This document shows positions 1,286 to 58,067 of a stretch of 64,000 nucleotides of DNA, one piece after another. Position 1 is the stretch's first letter, and every line of letters starts with the position of its first letter. The position numbers were made by a program, and so were the translations under genes. A model generated the notes under the pieces. It had not been told where the DNA came from, ran no database searches, and was given only the letters and a program-made list of their open reading frames with translations. This DNA comes from an uncultured Methanosarcinaceae archaeon (GTDB lineage: Archaea > Halobacteriota > Methanosarcinia > Methanosarcinales > Methanosarcinaceae): positions 192,001-256,000 of the forward strand of contig CAVSHT010000011.1 of NCBI GenBank assembly GCA_963727895.1, in the 5' to 3' direction.

Positions 1286-2025
1286 GGCTTTGATAATTAA
1301 CTATAGTTATATACTATTAGAAAGTATATTTCTTCATTAACTGCCCCAGATGCAATAGTTCTAATCACAAAAAGAATGGTATAGTTGGCGGGCGTCAACG
1401 GTACAAATGCTCTGATTGTGGCTATAACTATACGGTAGAGCTAAAATCAACTGCTTTTTCCACTTATGTCAAAAGACAGGCTTTACAACTCTATCTTGAA
1501 GGATTGGGCTTTCGCTCAATAGGAAGAGTTTTAGGGGTAAGTCATGTTTCTGTCCAAAAATGGATCAAGAAATTTGGTCAAGAGTTAGAGAACCTAAAAA
1601 GTGAAAGTGAGATATCTATTGTTGAAATGGATGAGATGCACACTTACATCGGTAACAAAAAAAATATTGCTGGATCTGGATTGCTGTTGATAGAGTTGGG
1701 AAAAAGTTCATCAACTGCTCTTTTGGCAGCAGAGGAACAGAAACTGGAAAACTACTCTGGGAAAAAGTGAAGAAAAAAGACATTGGAGAAGTAATGACAG
1801 ATCACTGGAGGGAATATGCAGAGTTTCTTCCAGAAAAGAGTCATACTCAATCCAAAGCAGAAACATTTACAGTTGAGGGATATAACAGCATATTGAGGCA
1901 CTTTTTAGCAAGGTTGAGAAGAAAGACAAAGTGTTATACGAAGAGTCTTGAAATGCTAAAGTACTCGGTTATTCTATTGATGAAATACAGAAATAAAGAG
2001 TTAACTATGTTTAGATAACAATGCC
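1286..2025 (+). mobile_element. IS1-family element, copy 1 (740 bp)
   Basis: Imperfect terminal IRs GGCTTTGATA.../...TAACAATGCC; perfect 8-bp TSD AAATTTAA (1278-1285, 2026-2033); insA Zn-ribbon/HTH and insB DDE joined by an A8 slip site (1657-1664); start codon is ATT (1336). Confidence 0.95.
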
Positions 2026-2411
2026 AAATTTAAATAATTTTGCACTTACTGACATTACAACAAAGCAAGACATAAGAATTTTGAGTACTAAGTGGAATCT
2101 TCTAAATTTAAAGTCTTCAAGAATACCAGTCCCGTTGTCCGAGAATATTTAAACAAAATCTGTAATGTTCTTCAATCTCTTTCCGGATACTTATATTGGA
2201 TCCATAAATATCTACACACTTTTCATAAGATGAGGATTGAAACGCTAGATTGAAACGCCATCGAGTATACATTTATATATATTGTCACTTTTATTCTTTC
2301 AGGTATATTTAAGGAAATCACATTATGTACATTATTTTCTAGATTGAGTAATAGTATAAAACAAAAAATGATATAAATAGATAAGAGAGTAAAAATTAGT
2401 AGGAGAAATAA

Positions 2412-3050
2412 GTGATAACCGAAAATCTCGGATTTTTAATCCACTTTTTCACAATTATCTTCGTTGTTGTCAACCCTCTTAGCGGAGTAGTTACTTTCAT
2501 CTCTTTGACCAGCAAGATGAGAAATGAAGAAAAAAACGAAATCGCAAAAAAGTCAGTTATACTTGCATGTGTAATTGCCCTATTTTTTGCAATTGCAGGA
2601 AATATTATACTTAACCTGTTCAACATTAGCGTAGATTCGTTGCGGGTTGCAGGAGGAATTCTGCTTTTCAGCATTGCTTTTGATATGATGCATGCTAAAA
2701 TCTCAAAGGGAAGGATTACTGAAGAAGAGATTTCTCATTCTCAGGAACGAGAAGACATCTGGATCTTCCCGATAAGCCTTCCTCTTCTGACAGGTCCCGG
2801 TACGATCAGTACAGTTATTGTTTTGATGGGAGGAACAGCATCAATTGTTCAAAAAATGATAATTCTCATATCAATCATATTGACGTTCATTATCTGCTAT
2901 TATATCTTCCACTTCTCAAGAGGGATTCACAAGATGATAGGATATAATGGGATGCTGGTTTTTACAAGGCTGATGGGGCTTTTGCTTGCTGCTCTTGCAG
3001 TGGATTTAACTTTTAAAGGTATAATAAATATATACCAGTTAGCAATGTGA
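2412..3050 (+). CDS. MarC family membrane protein
   Basis: Six TM segments; VVNPL, SLRVAGGILLF, FPISLPLLTGPGTI, TRLMGLLLAALAV. Confidence 0.9.
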   Translation: MITENLGFLIHFFTIIFVVVNPLSGVVTFISLTSKMRNEEKNEIAKKSVILACVIALFFAIAGNIILNLFNISVDSLRVAGGILLFSIAFDMMHAKISKGRITEEEISHSQEREDIWIFPISLPLLTGPGTISTVIVLMGGTASIVQKMIILISIILTFIICYYIFHFSRGIHKMIGYNGMLVFTRLMGLLLAALAVDLTFKGIINIYQLAM

Positions 3051-3067
3051 GACAGTACATTTTAAAA

Positions 3068-3181
3068 GCTGTCTCAAAACCCAACCTATTTTCTAAATCT
3101 CTTAATGCTCTATAATTACTCGTTTATAGAAAATTTTGTATAAATGGACTTATCTCTGTAAATTTTCTTTTTTTGGATACT
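3068..3181. mobile_element. Putative MITE (TCYCAAAA...TTTTGRGA-type ends)
   Basis: Non-coding; imperfect terminal IR GCTGTCTCAAAA / TTTTGGATAC; shares CAAAAC...TTTTCTRAATC with the elements at 6445 and 54492. Confidence 0.4.
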
Positions 3182-3252
3182 AAATAGTAAAATTTATTTC
3201 GCTAGCTCTTAGTATCAAAAAATAGTATTAAAGAATAATAATTCAACAACTG

Positions 3253-4264
3253 ATGATGAATATGGTAAATTTGAATGTGAAATATCAATTTGTCCCTGCG
3301 TATACTTTTGGTAAGCCAAATCAATCAGTAGTGCTTGCAGAACAAGAAGCATCTATTAAAGACATCAATGAATATGTAATAGACGGAAATGCAAAAGTTT
3401 GTCTTGATCTGTTACCAAATCCTAGTATTAATGTATATTTTTCCGGCAAAAAACTCGACACTACTAAAGTATCACTAAGAAAGTTACATGGAGAATATAT
3501 AGATCAAAAACAATTTGAATTTACATTTAAAAAATATATAAATTGGTCTGAAGGATATATACTACAAGCCAACTTTTTAAATATTAATGGACCTTCACTA
3601 GTTTTTTTCCCGCGTTTTGATCCAATGATTGTAGTTGGAGACGATGACACACAGATACAATATGTTGTTTTCCATTTATTCAATTTCGTGAATTTTCTTG
3701 GAACAAGTACAAGTATAGAGGAATTTGTAACCTCTCATTCCTATGGAGGTTACCTAATTCAGCATGTCCATTTCAAAACAGATGATTGGGCTGTAGAGCT
3801 ACGATCTTTATCAGAATCAAAAACTAATTTTAAAATATTGGATGAAAGGGCGGATATGGGATTACACACATAGGGAAATTTGAAAACGTGGACAATACTA
3901 AATTTTCAGATAAGGAAGCTAAAGATCAGCTAAATGCTCTACACTCATTTTTCTCTTTTGTGAAGGGATTTTCTTGTAGACCCATTTGTGCTGTAGGCTA
4001 TGATTCTTCAGGGAATCCTATATGGGAAGGGTGGTCTGCACCAACTGAGTCTACTTTTTCATCATCATTTTCTTCAATTTCGTGGTTTGATAGAATGCAT
4101 TCTGATCAAATGGAAAAACTGTTCTTGGGTTTTATGAAATGCTGGTTTAAGGAAAGATGGAATGATACTTTTCAAAAAGTAATTTATTGGTATTATAATG
4201 CTAATACCTCTAAAAAAGATGCAGGAATTATACTTGCTCAAACTGCTCTTGAAAGATTATTTTA
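3253..4264 (+). pseudogene. Uncharacterised accessory protein (resembles YopA-central/ApeA-associated proteins), frameshifted and truncated by an IS
   Basis: ORFs 3253-3873 and 3888-4265 join by a 1-nt shift near 3845 (...GGYGITHIGKFENVDN...); the frame ends exactly at the IS IR at 4265. Confidence 0.5.
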
Positions 4265-35187: not shown

Positions 35188-36610
35188 ATGATAGTGATAA
35201 AAGAAATAAAAGATACCAATGAAGTGAGATTGCAGTTTGTAAATATTGGTTTTAAATATGGATTGGCCACATCAAACCCAAATAATAAAAGTGTTATTTT
35301 TAAACCATATGATAGAATAATTGAAAGAGGAAAAGAAACAGGATACATTTCATATTTATTTTTAAACACTCATACAGAAAGCTCAACTTTCTATGAAAAT
35401 GAAGTTAATAATGTTGATAATATTTTACATTCTGAAGAATTTCTGTCTAAAATCTCTGCAGAATATATAAAAACTCTTGGTTGCATTTGCTATACCAAAG
35501 GTAAGCAAATATTGTTTTATCCAGCATATACTTCAAACTTTTTTAAAGTTTTCACAGATAGAGATAAACCTTTAAAGCACGAAAAAAACATATGGCATTG
35601 GTACTCAAAAATAGATATATATGCTTATAACATATATTTCTTCATGAACTGCCCCAGATGCAATAGTTCCAGTCACAATAAGAATGGTATAGTTGGCGGG
35701 CGTCAACGGTACAAATGCTCTGATTGTGGATATAACTATACAGTAGAGCTAAAATCAACTGCTTTTTCCGCCTCTGTCAAAAAACAGGCTTTACAACTCT
35801 ATCTTGAAGGATTGGGCTTTCGTTCAATAGGAAAATTTTTAGGGGTGAGTCATGTTTCTGTCCAAAGATGGATCAAGAAATTTGGTCAGGAGTTAGAGAA
35901 CCTAAAAAGTGAAAATGAGATATCTATTGTTGAAATGGATGAGATGCACACTTACATCGGTAACAACAAAAATATTGCTGGATCTGGATTGCTGTTGATA
36001 GAGTTGGGAAAAAGTTCATCAACTGCTCTTTTGGCAGCAGAGGAACGGAAACTGGAAAACTACTCTGGGAAAAATTGAAGAAAAAAGAGATTGGAGAAGT
36101 GATGACAGATCACTGGAGGGCATATGCAGAGTTTATTCCAGAAAAGATCCATACTCAATCCAAAGCAGAAACGTATACTGTTGAAGGATATAACAGCATA
36201 TTGAGGCACTTTTTGGCAAGGTTGAGAAGAAAGACAAAGTGTTATACGAAGAGTCTTGAAATGCTAAAGTACTAGGTTATTCTATTGATGAAATAAAGAA
36301 AGAAAGAACTAGATATAGTTAAGTAACAATACCAAAATATTTAATTACTGCACCAATTATTGATAATAGTAGTAATAAAGATTCATTTTATCACTTTGAA
36401 TTTTACGTCCAAGTTGATTCATCTATTTCATCAAAAAAACCAGGTATAATTGCCCTGCCTAATCAAGAAAATCTTCAAATACCAATATCTGGAAAAATAA
36501 TGTATACTGATTATGAAATAGATATTCCTAATTGTAAAGGGAAGTTGATAATAGTTGCAACAAAAGTAGCTGGAATACTTAAAGACGAGACTCTTATTAG
36601 ATTCTCTTAA
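35188..36610 (+). pseudogene. Hypothetical gene interrupted by IS1 copy 2
   Basis: 135 codons before the IS (35188-35593); a 91-codon open frame KYLITAP...LIRFS* after it (36335-36610). Confidence 0.6.
35594..36333 (+). mobile_element. IS1-family element, copy 2 (740 bp)
   Basis: IRs GGCATTGGTA.../...TAACAATACC; insA ATG at 35644; slip site altered to AACAAAAA; premature TAG at 36273; no clean TSD. Confidence 0.95.
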
Positions 36611-36736
36611 AAGCAGTCTTAATGGGGTCACTTTACGAATGAAATAAAATAACAGAAGAAGAAAGAAAAGAGGAATTAGAGTGAGCTATCTTGAAAGTAT
36701 TCACTCAACATGTAACGACGAATAAATAGTGGATAT

Positions 36737-36774
36737 AGGGTATCATCCCGATTTTAGCTTAGGTGTACGCTAAG
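36737..36774 (+). mobile_element. Solo Tn3-family-like 38-bp terminal inverted repeat
   Basis: AGGGTATCATCCCGATTTTAGCTTAGGTGTACGCTAAG: exactly 38 bp with GGGTA...ACGCTAAG. Confidence 0.6.
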
Positions 36775-36962
36775 AAACAATTACTAATTTTGGGTACGCA
36801 AAATCGATAAGAAGAACCATGTTAGGGGTACCGATTATACAGGCGCATTAATTGTCCTCATTTTCTTTTAGAAAATCTTCCGATTTTAAGTTATATCAAA
36901 TCTATGAAAGATATGACATTTTTTCACCTACAGCCTAACCTAGAGATTGTCTCTCCCTCGTA

Positions 36963-36976
36963 CACTTGACAGTACC
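36963..36976 (+). mobile_element. Isolated IS6-like right end
   Basis: CACTTGACAGTACC, reverse complement GGTACTGTCAAGTG; no transposase remains. Confidence 0.35.
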
Positions 36977-37014
36977 TTTATAAGATAAAATCTGTATATT
37001 TTTGCTATTTATTC

Positions 37015-37049
37015 AATGCACGGGTTTTATTGTAAAACCTGTGAATTTC
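37015..37049. repeat. Palindromic ~34-bp motif, copy B
   Basis: AATGCACGGGTTTTATTGTAAAACCTGTGAATTTC, a direct repeat of 35102-35135. Confidence 0.7.
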
Positions 37050-37139
37050 CCTAAAACGCACATGCTTTTCTTCGAATAACAAGCACAACTAATGAAAGTA
37101 CTCTCCGTTCTTTTTTTTGACTATTAAGCCCTCATTACC

Positions 37140-37273
37140 TTGGGCAGTAAGGTTGTCTCGATTTTGGTTTTTCAAAACCGTCCTAAAACTAATCAGTGAA
37201 TTGCCATCGAAGGCTCAAGTGTGACTTTGATCACGGATGCTAAATTGGCCTTTTAGGCAATTCCACTGCCCAA
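37140..37273 (+). ncRNA. Candidate bridge/seek RNA of the IS110 element
   Basis: Closing stem TTGGGCAGT/ACTGCCCAA enclosing two stem-internal loop-stem arms whose loop segments match the target flank and the element's right end. Confidence 0.7.
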
Positions 37274-37292
37274 ATAAATTTGGCGATCTAAT

Positions 37293-38557
37293 TTGATTTA
37301 AGTCATAAACAAAGCTTGTGGTTTAGACATTCACAAACTCTTTTTCATTGCTACAATTCTCAGTATATCTGGTGAAAAACAACAGCAACGTTTCAACAGA
37401 GATGATGAAGGAATTTTAGCCCTTAAAAATTGGGTAATATCAGAAAAATGTGATGTTGTTGCATGTGAATCAACCAGCGAATTTTAGGTTCCGATTCATG
37501 ATTCATTGGTAAAGCATCTAACTGTGATAGTTGGAAATGCGCGAGATATGAAGGTATTTACCCATACAAAAACAGATAAGATTGACTCAGAAGTCATTGC
37601 ACAACTTGCACTTAATAATATGATTCAGCCATCAAGAGTTTTTCCAAAGGATCATAGATATTTTAGATCATATGTTCTACTTCGGTTAACACTTGTACAA
37701 AAAAGAACAGATTTAAAAAATAAAGCTCACTCAATTCTTGCATCTGAAATTCAATTTTTGCATCTGAAATGCTACACCTGAATAATGTGCTGACAGACGT
37801 TTTTGGCAAGAATGACAGAATGATCTTATTAGGAATCTCTTCAGGTAAGAGTGTTGATCAGATTATTGCAAGCCTCTCTCCAAATGTTCGGAAAAAAGCT
37901 GCTCAGATAAGAGAAATTCTTGATCGAGAAATTTCTCAAAGTGCTGCATTTAGACTTCAGATCTGTCTGAAACTCATAAAAAGTCTTGATGATGAACTCG
38001 AAGCTTTAGAAACAGAAATTTTCAATTATGCTTCTCGAAATCATAAGCGAGAAATGGAGATTTTAATGTCAGTTCCAGGTATAGGGGAACTTGGTGCGGC
38101 AATTTTACTTGCTGAAATAGGCAACTTTAAGGATTTTTCTTCTGGAAATAAGCTTGCTTCTTGGCTTGGTCTAGTTCCTAATGTGTATCAATCTGCAGAT
38201 AAATACTATAACGGCAGAATCACAAAGAGGGGATCAAAAGTAGCAAGGTGGATTCTGACACAGATTGCTCAAGCAGCAGCAAGAAAGAAGAATAGCAGGT
38301 TAAAAGAGTTTTTTAACAGAAAAAAGAAGTTGATTGGACATGCAAAAGCAATTATTGCCTTAGCAAGGAAAATTGCAACGATAATATGGCATCTTATTAC
38401 AAATGATGAGATGGACGAAGATGAAACCGGATATCAAAAGGGAGAAATCCAAAAGAGAAAGATTATTGAAACTGAGATTTTTTCGGTTGATGAACGGATT
38501 AAAATAATTAGTGAAATATTTGCGATTATGGGGAAAAAGGATCAGGAGAGCACGTGA
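37293..38557 (+). pseudogene. IS110 DEDD recombinase/transposase
   Basis: CGLDIHK, VACEST, KTDKIDS, SVPGIG, LGLVPNVYQS, ALARK; TAA at 37299, W>TAG near 37485, 20-bp duplication frameshift at about 37731-37770. Confidence 0.92.
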
Positions 38558-38585
38558 GGATAATCTCCTCATGTACTTTCATGCT

Positions 38586-38830
38586 AAATCGTCCTATTGA
38601 GCGAAAGCCCAATCCTTCAAGATAGAGTTGTAAAGCCTGTCTTTTTACAGAGGCGGAAAAAGCAGTTGATTTTAGCTCTACTGTATAGTTATATCCACAA
38701 TCAGAGCATTTGTACCGTTGACGCCCGCCAACTATACCATTCTTTTTGTGATTAGAACTATTGCATCTGGGGCAGTTCATGCAGAAATATATGTTATAAG
38801 CATATATATCTATTTTTGATTACCAATGCT
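38586..38830 (-). mobile_element. IS1-family element, copy 3 (5' fragment only)
   Basis: Left IR AGCATTGGTAATCAAAAATAG; MNCPRC...GFRSIGRF stops at the IS110 right end. Confidence 0.93.
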
Positions 38831-38875
38831 AAAATAATTTGTAATTATCATTGCATTTTATAATTTTGCTTTAAC

Positions 38876-40713
38876 TTATCTAAACAGAATATCAGAAACA
38901 AGCTTTTCTGAACTCTTTTCTGAAATAACCATTGCAATATCATTATATTCAAGTTTCAAGTTGCTATGTGCAATGAGTGATTCACTTCCACGTTGTATCA
39001 TAACCATGAGGCTATTTTCTGGAAAATTAATTTCCTTTATAGCTTTTCCCACAACTTTTGGATTGGTAACCTTGACTTCCATAATACTGCCTTTATCTCC
39101 AACTTCACACATCGAAAAAAGACTATTCCTTCCAATCATATTGTCCATGACTTCAGCCGTTGTTATTGTAGGGCTCATTGCTCGAATTCCTAGATCCCAG
39201 AATGCCTGAAGATTTTCCACATTGTTTACCCTGGAAACTAATTGTTCTCCTGTAAATCCAAACTTTGCCTTTGCAATCTGGCAAAAAAGTAGATTCGTAT
39301 CGTCCTTCTTTGTGGTTATAACTACATACTTTGCATTTTTAATTCCTGCTTTTTTCAGAACACCTATATCTGCTGCATTACCCTGGAAAGTCCTGATTCC
39401 TAAATCTCTACATTGTTGACATTCTTCTTCATAAATGTCTATAACTGACACATTTTCTCCTCGTGTATCAAATCTTTCTGCAAGGATTCTACCTACTGTT
39501 CCTCTTCCAATAATCAAAATTTCCATAGGAATAACCTCCAGTATCTGAGCTACTTTTTTTGACATGCTACCTGTCAAGAAAACAGTAATAATGACTGTCA
39601 GGAAAACCAGTCCTACTATAGTTTTGCCTCCTGGAATTCCCATTTCATCCAGTTTGAGTGCAAAATAAGTTGCAATAGAAGTAGGTACGACTCCTCTAGG
39701 TCCTACAAACAATATGAACATTTTTTCCTTGGTACTTATGTTTGAATTCTGCATCGAGATAAAAACAGATACAGGAAGGACAAACAATGCTATAAGCAAA
39801 ACTAAAATAATTCCGTTTAATCCCATTTCCATGATATACCAGAATTTAAGCATTGCCGCAAGCAAGATGAAAATGAGAGCAATCATTAAAGTCGCAAGAT
39901 TGCTATTAAATTCTTCTACCATTTTCTTTTGGGGAAATTCAGAAGACCCCATAATAATCCCAAAGATAGCCAATACAAGAATTCCAGATTCATTTCCCAT
40001 AGTTTCTGACAGTACATAACAGGCAAATATGAAAATAAGAGTAAGCAGTCTGACGGGCTGTTTTCCAATTGATAGTCCTCTGGTAAAAAACCATCTAAGA
40101 ATAAGCCCACTTAAGCTTCCTATAATTAACCCTATCCCAAGCCTCTGTAGAATAAAAATCATTGCACCTGTTCTGGAAAGCTCGGCTGTAATCCATTCAA
40201 ACACCATTGCAGTTAGAATTACACTTGCTGCATCGTTTAAGACACTCTCAAGCTCCAAAATCTTGGAAACTTTATGACTGATCTTGATATGCCTGATTAT
40301 TGGGCCAACAACACTTGGACCGGTTGCCGTAACCAGAGCTTTAAAAAGGGCAGCAATCTGGAGAGGGATATCTATGAGAAGGTTTGTAAGTATGGTTATC
40401 CCGAGAAAAGTGATAAAAACTCCGACTGTACTTAATTTTAAAACACTTTCTTTAACTCCTCTCAGGTGCTTCAAGTAGATCATAAATCCACCGTCAAAGA
40501 CAATCACAGAAACGCAGATTGAAACGATAGCGCTTAACGCATCGGAATAAAGAGCTGGATTTAATAAGTTTAGAACTTCAGGCCCTACTATTATTCCTTC
40601 AATAAACAGAAGATGATAAAAGGAATCTGAAATTAGTGGCTAAGAGCCTGGGCCAGTAGGGACATAACAAGCAAATCAATAACTATTTCCATTAAAAATA
40701 TAGGATCAATCAT
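38876..40713 (-). pseudogene. CPA1 cation:proton antiporter with TrkA-N/TrkA-C (RCK) domains, 5' end broken
   Basis: TGPSVV, LESVLND, GPRGVV, RCK domains; ATG at 40713 is followed by an in-frame TAA and a frameshift near 40610. Confidence 0.85.
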
Positions 40714-57327: not shown

Positions 57328-58067
57328 GGCATTGATACTTAAACATAGTTATATACTATTAGAAAATATATTTCTTCATGAACTGCCCCAGATGCAATAG
57401 TTCCAGTCACAAAAAGAACGGTATAGTTGGTGGGCGTCAACGCTACAAATGCCATGATTGTGGATATAACTATATAGTAGAGCTAAAATCAACTGCTTTT
57501 TCCGCCTCTGTTAAAAAACAGGCTTTACAACTTTATCTTGAAGGATTGGGCTTTCGTTCAATAGGAAGAGTTTTAGGGGTGAGTCATGTTTCTGTCCAAA
57601 GATGGATCAAGAAATTTGGTCAGGAGTTAGAGAACCTAAAAAGTGAAAATGAGATATCTATTGTTGAAATGGATGAGATGCACACTTACATCGGTAACAA
57701 CAAAAATATTGCTGGATCTGGATTGCTGTTGATAGAGTTGGGAAAAAGTTCATCAACTGCTCTTTTGGTAGCAGAGGAACGGAAACTGGAAAACTACTCT
57801 AGGAATAAATGAAGAAAAAAGAGATTGGAGAAGTGATGACCGATCACTGGAGGGCATATGCAGAGTTTATTCCAGAAAAGATCCATACTCAATCAAAAGC
57901 AGAAACGTATACTGTTGAAGGATATAACAGCATATTGAGGCACTTTCTGGCAAGATTGAGAAGAAAGACAAAGTGTTATACGAAGAGTCTTGAAATGCTA
58001 AAGTACTCGGTTATTCTATTGATGAAATAAAGAAATAAAGAACTAGATATATTTAGTTAACAATACC
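57328..58067 (+). mobile_element. IS1-family element, copy 4 (740 bp)
   Basis: IRs GGCATTGATA.../...TAACAATACC; TSD CGCTTTTA/CGTTTTTA (1 mismatch); insB-frame stops TAG 57800 and TAA 57806. Confidence 0.95.

Follow-up and report, generated by a model that had tools for sequence, protein, structure and literature searches.

A probable bridge RNA in an IS110-family element of methanogenic archaea, with guides that fit the resident IS1 transposase gene

The stretch of DNA analysed here, referred to as the window, comprises 64,000 nucleotides (nt) of an uncultured Methanosarcinaceae archaeon (GenBank assembly GCA_963727895.1, contig CAVSHT010000011.1, positions 192,001 to 256,000). At about 37055-38587 it carries an insertion sequence (IS) of the IS110 family that abuts a fragment of an IS1-family element. 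We read this locus as a non-autonomous, recombinant copy of an IS110-family element of methanogenic archaea, the left end of which encodes a bridge (seek) RNA of ~135 nt with the guides of its first arm fitting a site in the transposase gene of the resident IS1, and we put the probability of this reading at roughly 0.85. It is supported directly by the family assignment, a fold with compensatory changes, three guide strands that covary with DNA, repeated independent insertions into IS1, and the defects of the window copy. The features of the locus are as follows.

37049-37056, plus strand: left flank half-site CCCTAAAA (left target and AA core), matching the arm-1 3´ strand at 8 of 9 positions
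37055-37135, plus strand: left terminal segment ahead of the RNA, with boundaries from BLAST of ~24 copies
Start of 37055-37135, plus strand: conserved end sequence of ~36 nt (ACGCACATG...)
37092-37101, plus strand: inner inverted-repeat copy, ATGAAAGTAC
37111-37128, plus strand: T-run and TATTAA stretch that may be a promoter, read from the sequence alone
37140-37273, plus strand: probable bridge RNA; covariance-model match at 37134-37285 (172.6 bits), the sole match of model R1 in the window
37151-37194, plus strand: target-binding arm (arm 1)
37156-37165, plus strand: arm-1 5´ strand, UCUCGAUUUU, complement of the top strand over core and right target (AAAATCG); covaries with right flanks
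37180-37189, plus strand: arm-1 3´ strand, GUCCUAAAAC, with the sense of left target and core; covaries with left flanks
37198-37263, plus strand: donor-binding arm (arm 2)
37236-37246, plus strand: arm-2 3´ strand, GAUGCUAAAUU, with the sense of right end and core (ATGCT-AA); changes in step with the final 3 nt of the right end
37293-38557, plus strand: recombinase pseudogene with TTG start and several lesions; Pfam Transposase_20 on the C-terminal piece
38573-38587, plus strand: right end, consisting of the outer inverted-repeat copy GTACTTTCAT (38573-38582), a GCT extension (38583-38585) and the AA core
38586-38829, minus strand: IS1-family fragment (IS1 positions 255 to 12), 95.9% identity over 244 nt, cut in the helix-turn-helix part of the first frame
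35584-36343, plus strand: intact IS1 copy of 760 bp used as reference, with the site CCCCTAAAAATTTTCC in the element's orientation
1283-2028 and 57328-58067: two further intact IS1 copies, with the site CCCCTAAAACTCTTCC

The element and its recombinase gene

When the region is compared by BLAST with the genome it comes from (G000; 3.67 Mb in 19 contigs), a repeated unit of ~1,535 bp emerges that starts at ~37055-37057 and ends at ~38585-38588. The start had been placed at 37085 in the original prediction, made from the sequence of the window, and is moved outwards by the boundaries of the ~24 copies, which are 92-100% alike. The left end (~240 nt) accommodates a long non-coding region upstream of the recombinase gene, and the right end measures ~30 nt. 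The junctions ...CTAAAA/CGCAC and CATGCT/AAA(A)T recur in the ~24 copies and in relatives, with an A-run that is the sum of target and donor contributions. Insertion is site-specific, with a short core at both junctions and without terminal inverted repeats, as is typical of the IS110 family. This family membership, already part of the original prediction, is confirmed by PF01548 and PF02371 (Pfam, E 2.5e-17 and 3.6e-26 on a near-intact copy) and by NF033542, “IS110 family RNA-guided transposase”, which scores 261 bits on the best copy against a cut-off of 140. The window copy retains PF02371 (Transposase_20) on its C-terminal piece, and a remote match in the PDB to the IS621 and ISCro4 transposases (E 3.6e-9) is confined to the C-terminal part.

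Three lesions disrupt the recombinase gene in the window: the third codon is TAA (37299-37301), a conserved TGG is replaced by TAG (37485-37487), and a duplication of 20 nt (~37729-37749) shifts the frame. This copy is non-autonomous, and broken copies would presumably be mobilised in trans. In-frame TAG codons are found in several recombinase copies, and the state of the pyrrolysyl-tRNA synthetase gene (pylS) bears on their possible read-through. The C-terminal domain of this enzyme is encoded at G000:C12:42192-42909 in two pieces in different frames, one of them with a TGA, reflecting either a broken gene or an assembly error; pyrrolysine read-through is not claimed.

The left-end RNA and its guide strands

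The original prediction had 37140-37273 folding into a 9-bp closing stem around two arms. The minimum-energy fold of 37130-37285 has this form, with 37140-37148 paired to 37265-37273 and 10-nt strands on both sides of the internal loop of arm 1; its z-score is -2.74, and 1 of 200 shuffled sequences folded equally well. The short strings on which the proposal was built are likewise where it had located them (CGATTTT at 37159-37165, CCTAAAA at 37182-37188, ATGCTAA at 37237-37243 and again at 38581-38587), and AAATCGTCC begins at 38586. RNAalifold recovered the closing stem and both arms from 23 sequences, with exchanges of G-C for A-U pairs and many near-invariant G-U pairs that are compatible with the sense strand only. 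Among 90 model-aligned sequences (61 distinct), changes on both sides were seen in 26 of 31 pairs, and 95.9% of cells were paired, compared to 84.3% in shuffles (none of 500 as high) and 30-41% with slid partners, in an alignment that is fitted to the model structure and in this way favours pairing. The same helices appear in an independent MAFFT alignment of relatives.

After exclusion of 16 of 80 loci that were gene fragments only, R1 matched 56 times among the 64 loci supplied, 55 of these directly upstream of the gene; within the window's own genome all of its 24 matches fall in copies of the element. It also matched RNA in 10 of 13 distant loci. An Rfam scan of 36000-40000 at E up to 10 returned nothing on the RNA region and five chance-level matches elsewhere. 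The one downstream match (1457-1608) lies on a contig of 2,081 nt (L142) that could be a circular or tandem form of the element. In a homologue from Methanosarcina sp. KYL-1 (L015 / L078), ~88 nt are inserted into the apical loop that caps the inner hairpin of arm 1, with stems and guide strands preserved, and this loop thus seems to tolerate cargo.

In the window alone, the guide matches do not rise beyond chance (CCTAAAA 22 times with 18.2 expected; CGATTTT 20 times with 14.7 expected), in keeping with the initial caveat that they are short and A-rich. That guides and flanks match in excess of chance is seen from comparison with relatives. In left- and right-end alignments of 16 homologues, the stems are conserved and the loop strands variable. 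The arm-1 3´ strand has the pattern N4-5 AAAC, corresponding to the 4-5 bases left of the element, the A-run and the first base of the element, and the bases that follow the element on its right appear as their reverse complement in the 5´ strand. The 3´ strand pairs with the bottom strand, and its last base or bases match the first of the left end, as expected of a handshake guide.

For statistical evaluation, junctions were placed by conserved end motifs, independent of the guides, and 47 distinct insertions in 17 guide classes were retained after removal of L001 (a duplicate of L002), L014 (misplaced anchor), L043 (misfit of the end pattern) and rows with a flank missing. Left-side matches amounted to 312, against 240 ± 14 (maximum 299) after permutation of guide classes, and right-side matches to 366, against 319 ± 11 (maximum 360). 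None of 20,000 permutations attained the observed value on either side, and the same was true with one insertion per class. In one genome, the guide pair UACUUAUUUU / UGAUAAAAC is shared by 16 insertions, with (G)ATAAAA-TAAGT as the consensus of their targets.

A second set was drawn from named records of Methanosarcina species, Methanosarcinaceae, Methanomicrobiaceae, Methanogenium cariaci, Methanoregulaceae, Methanolinea, Methanocellaceae, Methanotrichaceae and Candidatus Methanoperedens. A few contigs of 1.5-2 kb filed under bacteria came up as well and are taken to be mis-binned. In an unanchored scan, the left site matched its own guide at 8 or more of 9 positions in 34 of 52 cases (65%, compared to 2.2% with foreign guides), and the right site in 21 of 46 (46%, compared to 12%). 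The rule extends to GC-rich sequences. In L147 the guide UAGUGAAAC stands against the left junction TAGTGAAAC, and the complement of the 5´ strand, AAACGGCGG, equals the right junction, AAACGGCGG; L145 and L147 both match at 9 of 9 positions on both sides. Ten distant loci (Methanoperedens, Methanomicrobiales) with recombinases 38-46% identical follow the same guide rule. Both arm-1 strands thus covary with the flanks, the left and the right, as the original prediction had suggested checking; copies with the same loops share a target motif, and copies with other loops occupy other motifs. The two strands of the arm-1 loop fit opposite DNA strands of the left and right target halves, as in bridge and seek RNAs.

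Some loci depart from this pattern. In L043 (G000:C4:52540-54056) and L044 (G195), donor triplet and 5´ target guide misfit the element's own right end and right flank; from their sequences, both are read as chimeras that would stem from recombination between subfamilies. Element contigs of 1.5-3.2 kb in bacterial bins (L073, L077, L079, L098, L102, L130, L142 and L151; Cloacimonadales, Bacteroidales, Clostridiales and others) are most likely a mis-binned repeat.

In arm 2, the 3´ strand (AUGCUAAAUU in the window) contains a variable triplet that follows the right-end triplet across relatives in 11 variants (GCT, GCC, GCA, GTT, GAC, GTA, GGT, AGG, GGG, GCG and ACC), in line with the proposed match of AUGCUAA to the right junction. 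L015 is an exception, with GCU in the RNA and GCC in the DNA, where a G-U pair can still form. For the left-end half of the donor, we found no RNA strand that covaries in a mutual-information scan of all RNA columns (44 and 20 elements), and the top scores of the left- and right-end scan are phylogenetic noise. The second donor guide, already missing from the original prediction, thus did not emerge from this search. AUGUG/AUGCG in the 5´ strand of arm 2, inspected by eye, was considered for this role and rejected, as these bases form part of the inner stem and change together with their partner in that stem instead of following the left end. Stem covariation, loop-flank covariation and the covariation of arm 2 together point to a genuine bridge/seek RNA.

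The ends are also linked by a covarying inverted repeat of 8-13 bp between the interior of the left end and the right end (in the window ATGAAAGTAC at 37092-37101 and GTACTTTCAT at 38573-38582). Its mean length at 18 loci is 9.8, compared to 5.6 for shuffled right ends. The right copy lies 1-7 nt (mostly 3) from the right junction, and the left copy ~28-37 nt inside the left end at 17 of 18 loci, with 69 in L074; in one Methanoperedens subgroup the repeat extends to ~18 bp by eye. The repeat could serve as a protein site, or could pair over a long range, as RNA or DNA, and so enclose the donor junction.

In four RNA libraries, contigs aligned at 80% likeness span homologues of the entire element. 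A cultured-organism transcriptome (run X15) yielded a 179-nt contig over 37132-37287 with a word depth of 7,664, compared to ~1,830-3,890 for contigs of the open reading frame among the pieces listed. In a sediment metatranscriptome (X1), a 151-nt contig is identical to 37049-37174 and has a different left flank. This coverage is a weak hint, because the contigs come without ends, strand or level and the libraries may contain DNA. The RNA is presumably made and bound by the recombinase.

Insertion into IS1 and the origin of the window copy

More than 230 copies of a single 760-bp IS1-family element, ~94% alike pairwise, make up ~5% of the DNA in the assembly, an unusually heavy load. The element scores 120.6 bits with NF033558 (cut-off 100), matches PF03400 (E 3.5e-10) and has HTH_23 at residues 51-86; as is typical of IS1, a frame with an InsA-like zinc ribbon and helix-turn-helix is followed by a DDE_Tnp_IS1 frame. 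The copy at 35584 sits within a longer open frame (35188-36078).

The IS110-family element is inserted at about nt 254 of IS1, antisense, in the transposase gene, where it interrupts the helix-turn-helix part of the first frame. The arm-1 guides fit CCTAAAA(A)TCG at this site, and we therefore conclude that the element landed repeatedly in IS1 copies and broke them. The enrichment in IS1 that the original prediction had proposed to look for was found: 16 of 231 IS1 copies with a readable site are occupied, all at one position and in one orientation. When 23 copies of the element were examined, IS1 was present on both sides in 10, on the right only in 6 (including the window copy), on the left only in 3 and on neither side in 4. 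The non-IS1 flanks retain (C/T/A)CTAAAA on the left and AAAT/C on the right. Variants with an A-run and TC, which pair with the 5´ guide, occur in 13 of 16 occupied and 59 of 215 empty copies (odds ratio 11.5, Fisher p = 2.7e-5) and the exact TCGT variant in 7 of 16 and 43 of 215 (p = 0.052); since some of the copies are not independent of one another, both p values overstate the significance. In this genome, IS1 is the principal target. In other genomes, elements with other guides occupy other sites and not IS1; in Methanosarcina spelaei, 15 distinct right flanks share only AAATAAG-like starts, and two more repeat the flank of another contig. The proposal of an archaeal RNA-guided element that parasitises IS1 is thereby supported, both by the covariation of the guides and by the repeated insertions.

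The pre-insertion site was reconstructed less successfully. The second IS1 copy of the window was said to read GGA CGA TTT TTA GGG, which fails, as the intact copies read GGAAGAGTTTTAGGGG (two copies) and GGAAAATTTTTAGGGG. The reconstructed site is a composite that is absent from the intact IS1 copies in the window; it is, however, present in 43 unoccupied copies across the genome. For the same reason, the claim that only the IS1 copy next to the element (copy 3) has the fitting variant holds inside the window and not beyond it.

Several observations weigh against the interpretation. The 43 IS1 copies with the perfectly pairing variant are empty, and 3 of the 16 occupied copies carry a poorly pairing CTCT variant. 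The window copy is unable to make recombinase, and its 20-nt frameshift duplication is common to 17 of 21 full-length copies. The best copy (L001, on contig C4 of G000) has a frame of 390 amino acids that is cut short by a TAG, ~26 codons ahead of where the frame terminates in relatives; these have intact frames of 416 amino acids. The guides are short and A/U-rich, so that each match carries little information, and to this are added the pairing bias of the model-fitted alignment and the missing left-end guide. In the RNA runs, the holders of the element carry small shares (0.06-0.11 of sampled words), and the sequences come from relatives. Finally, beyond CCCTAAAA the left flank of the window copy is not IS1, so that this copy cannot itself count as a clean IS1 insertion. 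The empty, fully pairing sites fit an element that is now mostly dead.

An alternative is that the association with IS1 is not directed by guides, and that one insertion was spread by transposition of the IS1 composite or by segmental duplication. Both ends of IS1 survive the insertion, and the ~215 other copies could mobilise such a composite in trans. Two of the host IS1 copies are 98.1% alike, and spread of a composite does occur elsewhere, as in Caballeronia sp. SBC2, where four copies of a related gene lie in one IS3-family unit and the sequence on either side is identical up to the end of the unit. However, host IS1 copies are as diverse as random copies (94.4% pairwise likeness compared to 94.3% for random IS1 pairs) while the inserts are ~98% alike, and the nearest relative of the host is an empty IS1 in 7 of 10 cases, with one tied, which shows the insertions to be mostly independent. 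In addition, junction variants differ among the occupied copies (ATCG, ATCA, ATCT and CTCT), and the four copies in non-IS1 sites still have (C/T)CTAAAA...AAAT/C. We regard spread from one insertion as very improbable. Even less credence is given to the idea that the fold at the left end serves only as a 5´ leader regulating recombinase expression, with the target chosen by the protein and the loop-flank matches a by-product. The RNA does end ~20 nt before a GGCGAT/GGTGAT motif resembling a ribosome-binding site and a TTG start, and older work on the family proposed regulatory roles for the ends (PMC11208160). Yet nothing would make the loop bases of a leader follow changes in the DNA outside the element, as they do here for three strands and 17 guide classes and down to 38% protein identity, and the family mechanism was demonstrated by experiment in bacteria (PMC11208160, PMC11187229).

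With guide-directed insertion as the preferred reading, the mixed flanks of the window copy call for a separate explanation. The right flank is IS1 (positions 255 to 12, 95.9% identity), as originally recognized. On the same contig, ~34 kb from the window copy and beyond the limits of the window, an inverted copy (G000:C11:264732) is bordered by IS1 on the left and by unrelated DNA starting with AAAATC on the right. Such reciprocal flanks are a prediction of inversion, and both inferred parental sites of the putative inversion fit the guides. The mixed flanks are best explained by recombination between copies, and the window copy is most likely a recombinant. The existence of chimeric elements such as L043 also argues for homologous recombination over an origin of the mixed flanks in a guide-driven “half-match” event or an IS1-mediated rearrangement. 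The latter two are less likely, though with more in their favour than the alternatives above: the left flank retains CCCTAAAA, which fits the left guide, the neighbourhood is rich in IS1 copies, and half-match recombination by bridge recombinases is reported in a 2026 preprint (10.64898/2026.08.31.748434). The IS1 target-site duplications compared with regard to the inversion are AT-rich 8-9-mers. A search of the genome revealed no empty site of the non-IS1 flanks, only short repeat matches. A repeat of ~50-65 nt is found at 36983-37040 in the window, where it is preceded by AAAATCTG, resembling a right half-site, as well as to the right of the G000:C3 copy at 275978 and at G000:C8:189765-189832.

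Comparison with known systems and significance

By analogy with IS621 and ISEc11, an excised circle would join the ends as ...CATGCT-AA-ACGCAC..., and the RNA, bound by the DEDD recombinase, would hold two DNAs simultaneously. The two arm-1 guide strands would overlap on the A-run core, and strand exchange at the AA core would insert the element and leave AA on both sides. Both the circular intermediate and the chemistry are carried over from these analogues and should be read as a probable scheme.

The element shares with IS621 and the IS110 group a DEDD recombinase with PF01548 and PF02371 (PMC11208160, PMC11208158, PMC13626964), an extended non-coding left end that precedes the gene and encodes an RNA with two internal loops, guide strands that each run toward a 2-nt core, an extra 1-2 nt after the 3´ strands that match the partner DNA in the manner of handshake guides, and a variable target loop next to a conserved donor loop. 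It differs from IS621 in its core (AA here, CT in IS621), in the common stem that closes both arms, in the single donor strand found and in a very distant protein (E 3.6e-9, C-terminal part only). The strand order is also the opposite one. The sense of the left half is carried by the 5´ strand in each loop of IS621 (PMC11208160; PMC13626964), and the IS621 sequences in Supplementary Table 1 agree with this IS110 order, with donor and target labels exchanged there. In the present element it is the 3´ strand that has this sense, matching the left flank at 6.64 of 8 positions compared to 2.15 of 8 for the 5´ strand. As a control, ISEc21 of Escherichia coli (IS110 group), fetched by the coordinates given in PMC11187229, was subjected to the same k-mer scan, and a same-sense right-end match (395-402) was found before an antisense left-end match (419-426), which is the IS110 order. 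An E. coli plasmid element considered as an IS1111 control had no clear ends.

In the IS110 group, the bottom-strand match lies 5´ of the top-strand match, and this is reversed in both arms here. The IS1111 group has the complement of the top strand 5´ of the bottom-strand match, according to a statement in PMC11187229, and this is the order found; the long non-coding region downstream of the gene that belongs to IS1111 is not, the RNA being upstream in 55 of 56 matches. The clade therefore combines an IS110-type position with an IS1111-type polarity. The likeness to the IS1111 seekRNA elements (ISEc11, ISKpn4, ISPa11 and ISPst6) in strand order is accompanied by a subterminal inverted repeat with the right copy mostly 3 nt from the end (the 3-bp right extension) and by natural reprogramming among relatives (PMC11187229). 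In contrast, the RNA of IS1111 elements lies downstream of the recombinase gene, their left repeat copy is 6-7 nt inside the end (~28-37 nt here), and the repeat is 11-13 bp long (8-13 bp here; PMC11187229). Rare IS1111 relatives with an upstream non-coding region exist, e.g. ISMtsp17 (PMC11187229).

Archaeal IS110-family recombinases have already been catalogued, and ISfinder names for them include ISMac14, ISMba7, ISMba20, ISMma5, ISH18, ISHvo9 and ISHvo10. The archaeal elements group at the deep end of the identity matrix of Siddiquee (PMC11187229), and a cluster representative in the Durrant supplement has N-terminal and C-terminal motifs like those of this protein, as judged by eye only. 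A literature search returned no paper combining “Methanosarcina” and “bridge RNA”, and the papers combining “Methanosarcina” and “IS110” were unrelated by title, among the matches listed.

Targeting of one IS by another has bacterial precedents in the IS110 family. ISEc21 resembles the present case as an IS110-family element inside the transposase gene of another IS; its host is a bacterium, its strands follow the IS110 order, and a single copy was examined. The ISEc21 locus (L152) interrupts an IS3-family transposase gene at the region encoding a conserved catalytic motif. IS4321 and IS5075, bacterial elements of the IS1111 type, reportedly target the terminal repeats of Tn21-family transposons and in this respect would likewise be IS110/IS1111-family elements specialised on the site of another mobile element. 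The closest plasmid-borne relative (33% identity) is found on plasmids of Caballeronia sp. SBC2 (L153-L156), inside an IS3-family unit, between the end of the unit and its transposase gene. All four copies share the whole composite, and element and unit seem to move together; the relative's own ends could not be defined, and no polarity was read.

The principle of the mechanism is thus not new. RNA-guided choice of target and donor in IS110/IS1111 elements was demonstrated experimentally in bacteria (PMC11208160, PMC11187229), and natural reprogramming as well as targeting of repeats and other mobile elements were already known in bacterial IS110/IS1111 elements. What is added here is a methanogen clade with a mixed layout, a rich natural series of guides, and the specialisation on IS1 in this genome. 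One proposition, for which we see the odds as evenly balanced, is that the elements of methanogens (Methanosarcinales, Methanomicrobiales and Methanocellales) form a third architectural class, with an upstream RNA, IS1111 polarity and one donor strand along with a covarying inverted repeat that may take the place of the second donor guide. A small number of base changes in the target loop would then have redirected the element of one Methanosarcina lineage onto the IS1 transposase gene and made it a parasite of another transposon, with at least 16 IS1 copies disabled.

To our knowledge, experimental demonstration of bridge and seek RNAs has so far been confined to bacterial elements, and the comparisons made here carry the mechanism over to an archaeal clade. 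The natural reprogramming series comprises at least 17 guide pairs in one genus and more across orders. The mixed layout of upstream RNA and IS1111 strand order bears on the relationship of the two known groups, and the seeming absence of one donor guide, together with the covarying inverted repeat, bears on how much of the donor the RNA must read. In the genome studied here, a 230-copy element has its transposase gene interrupted at a single site and in a single orientation, a clean example of one transposon policing another.

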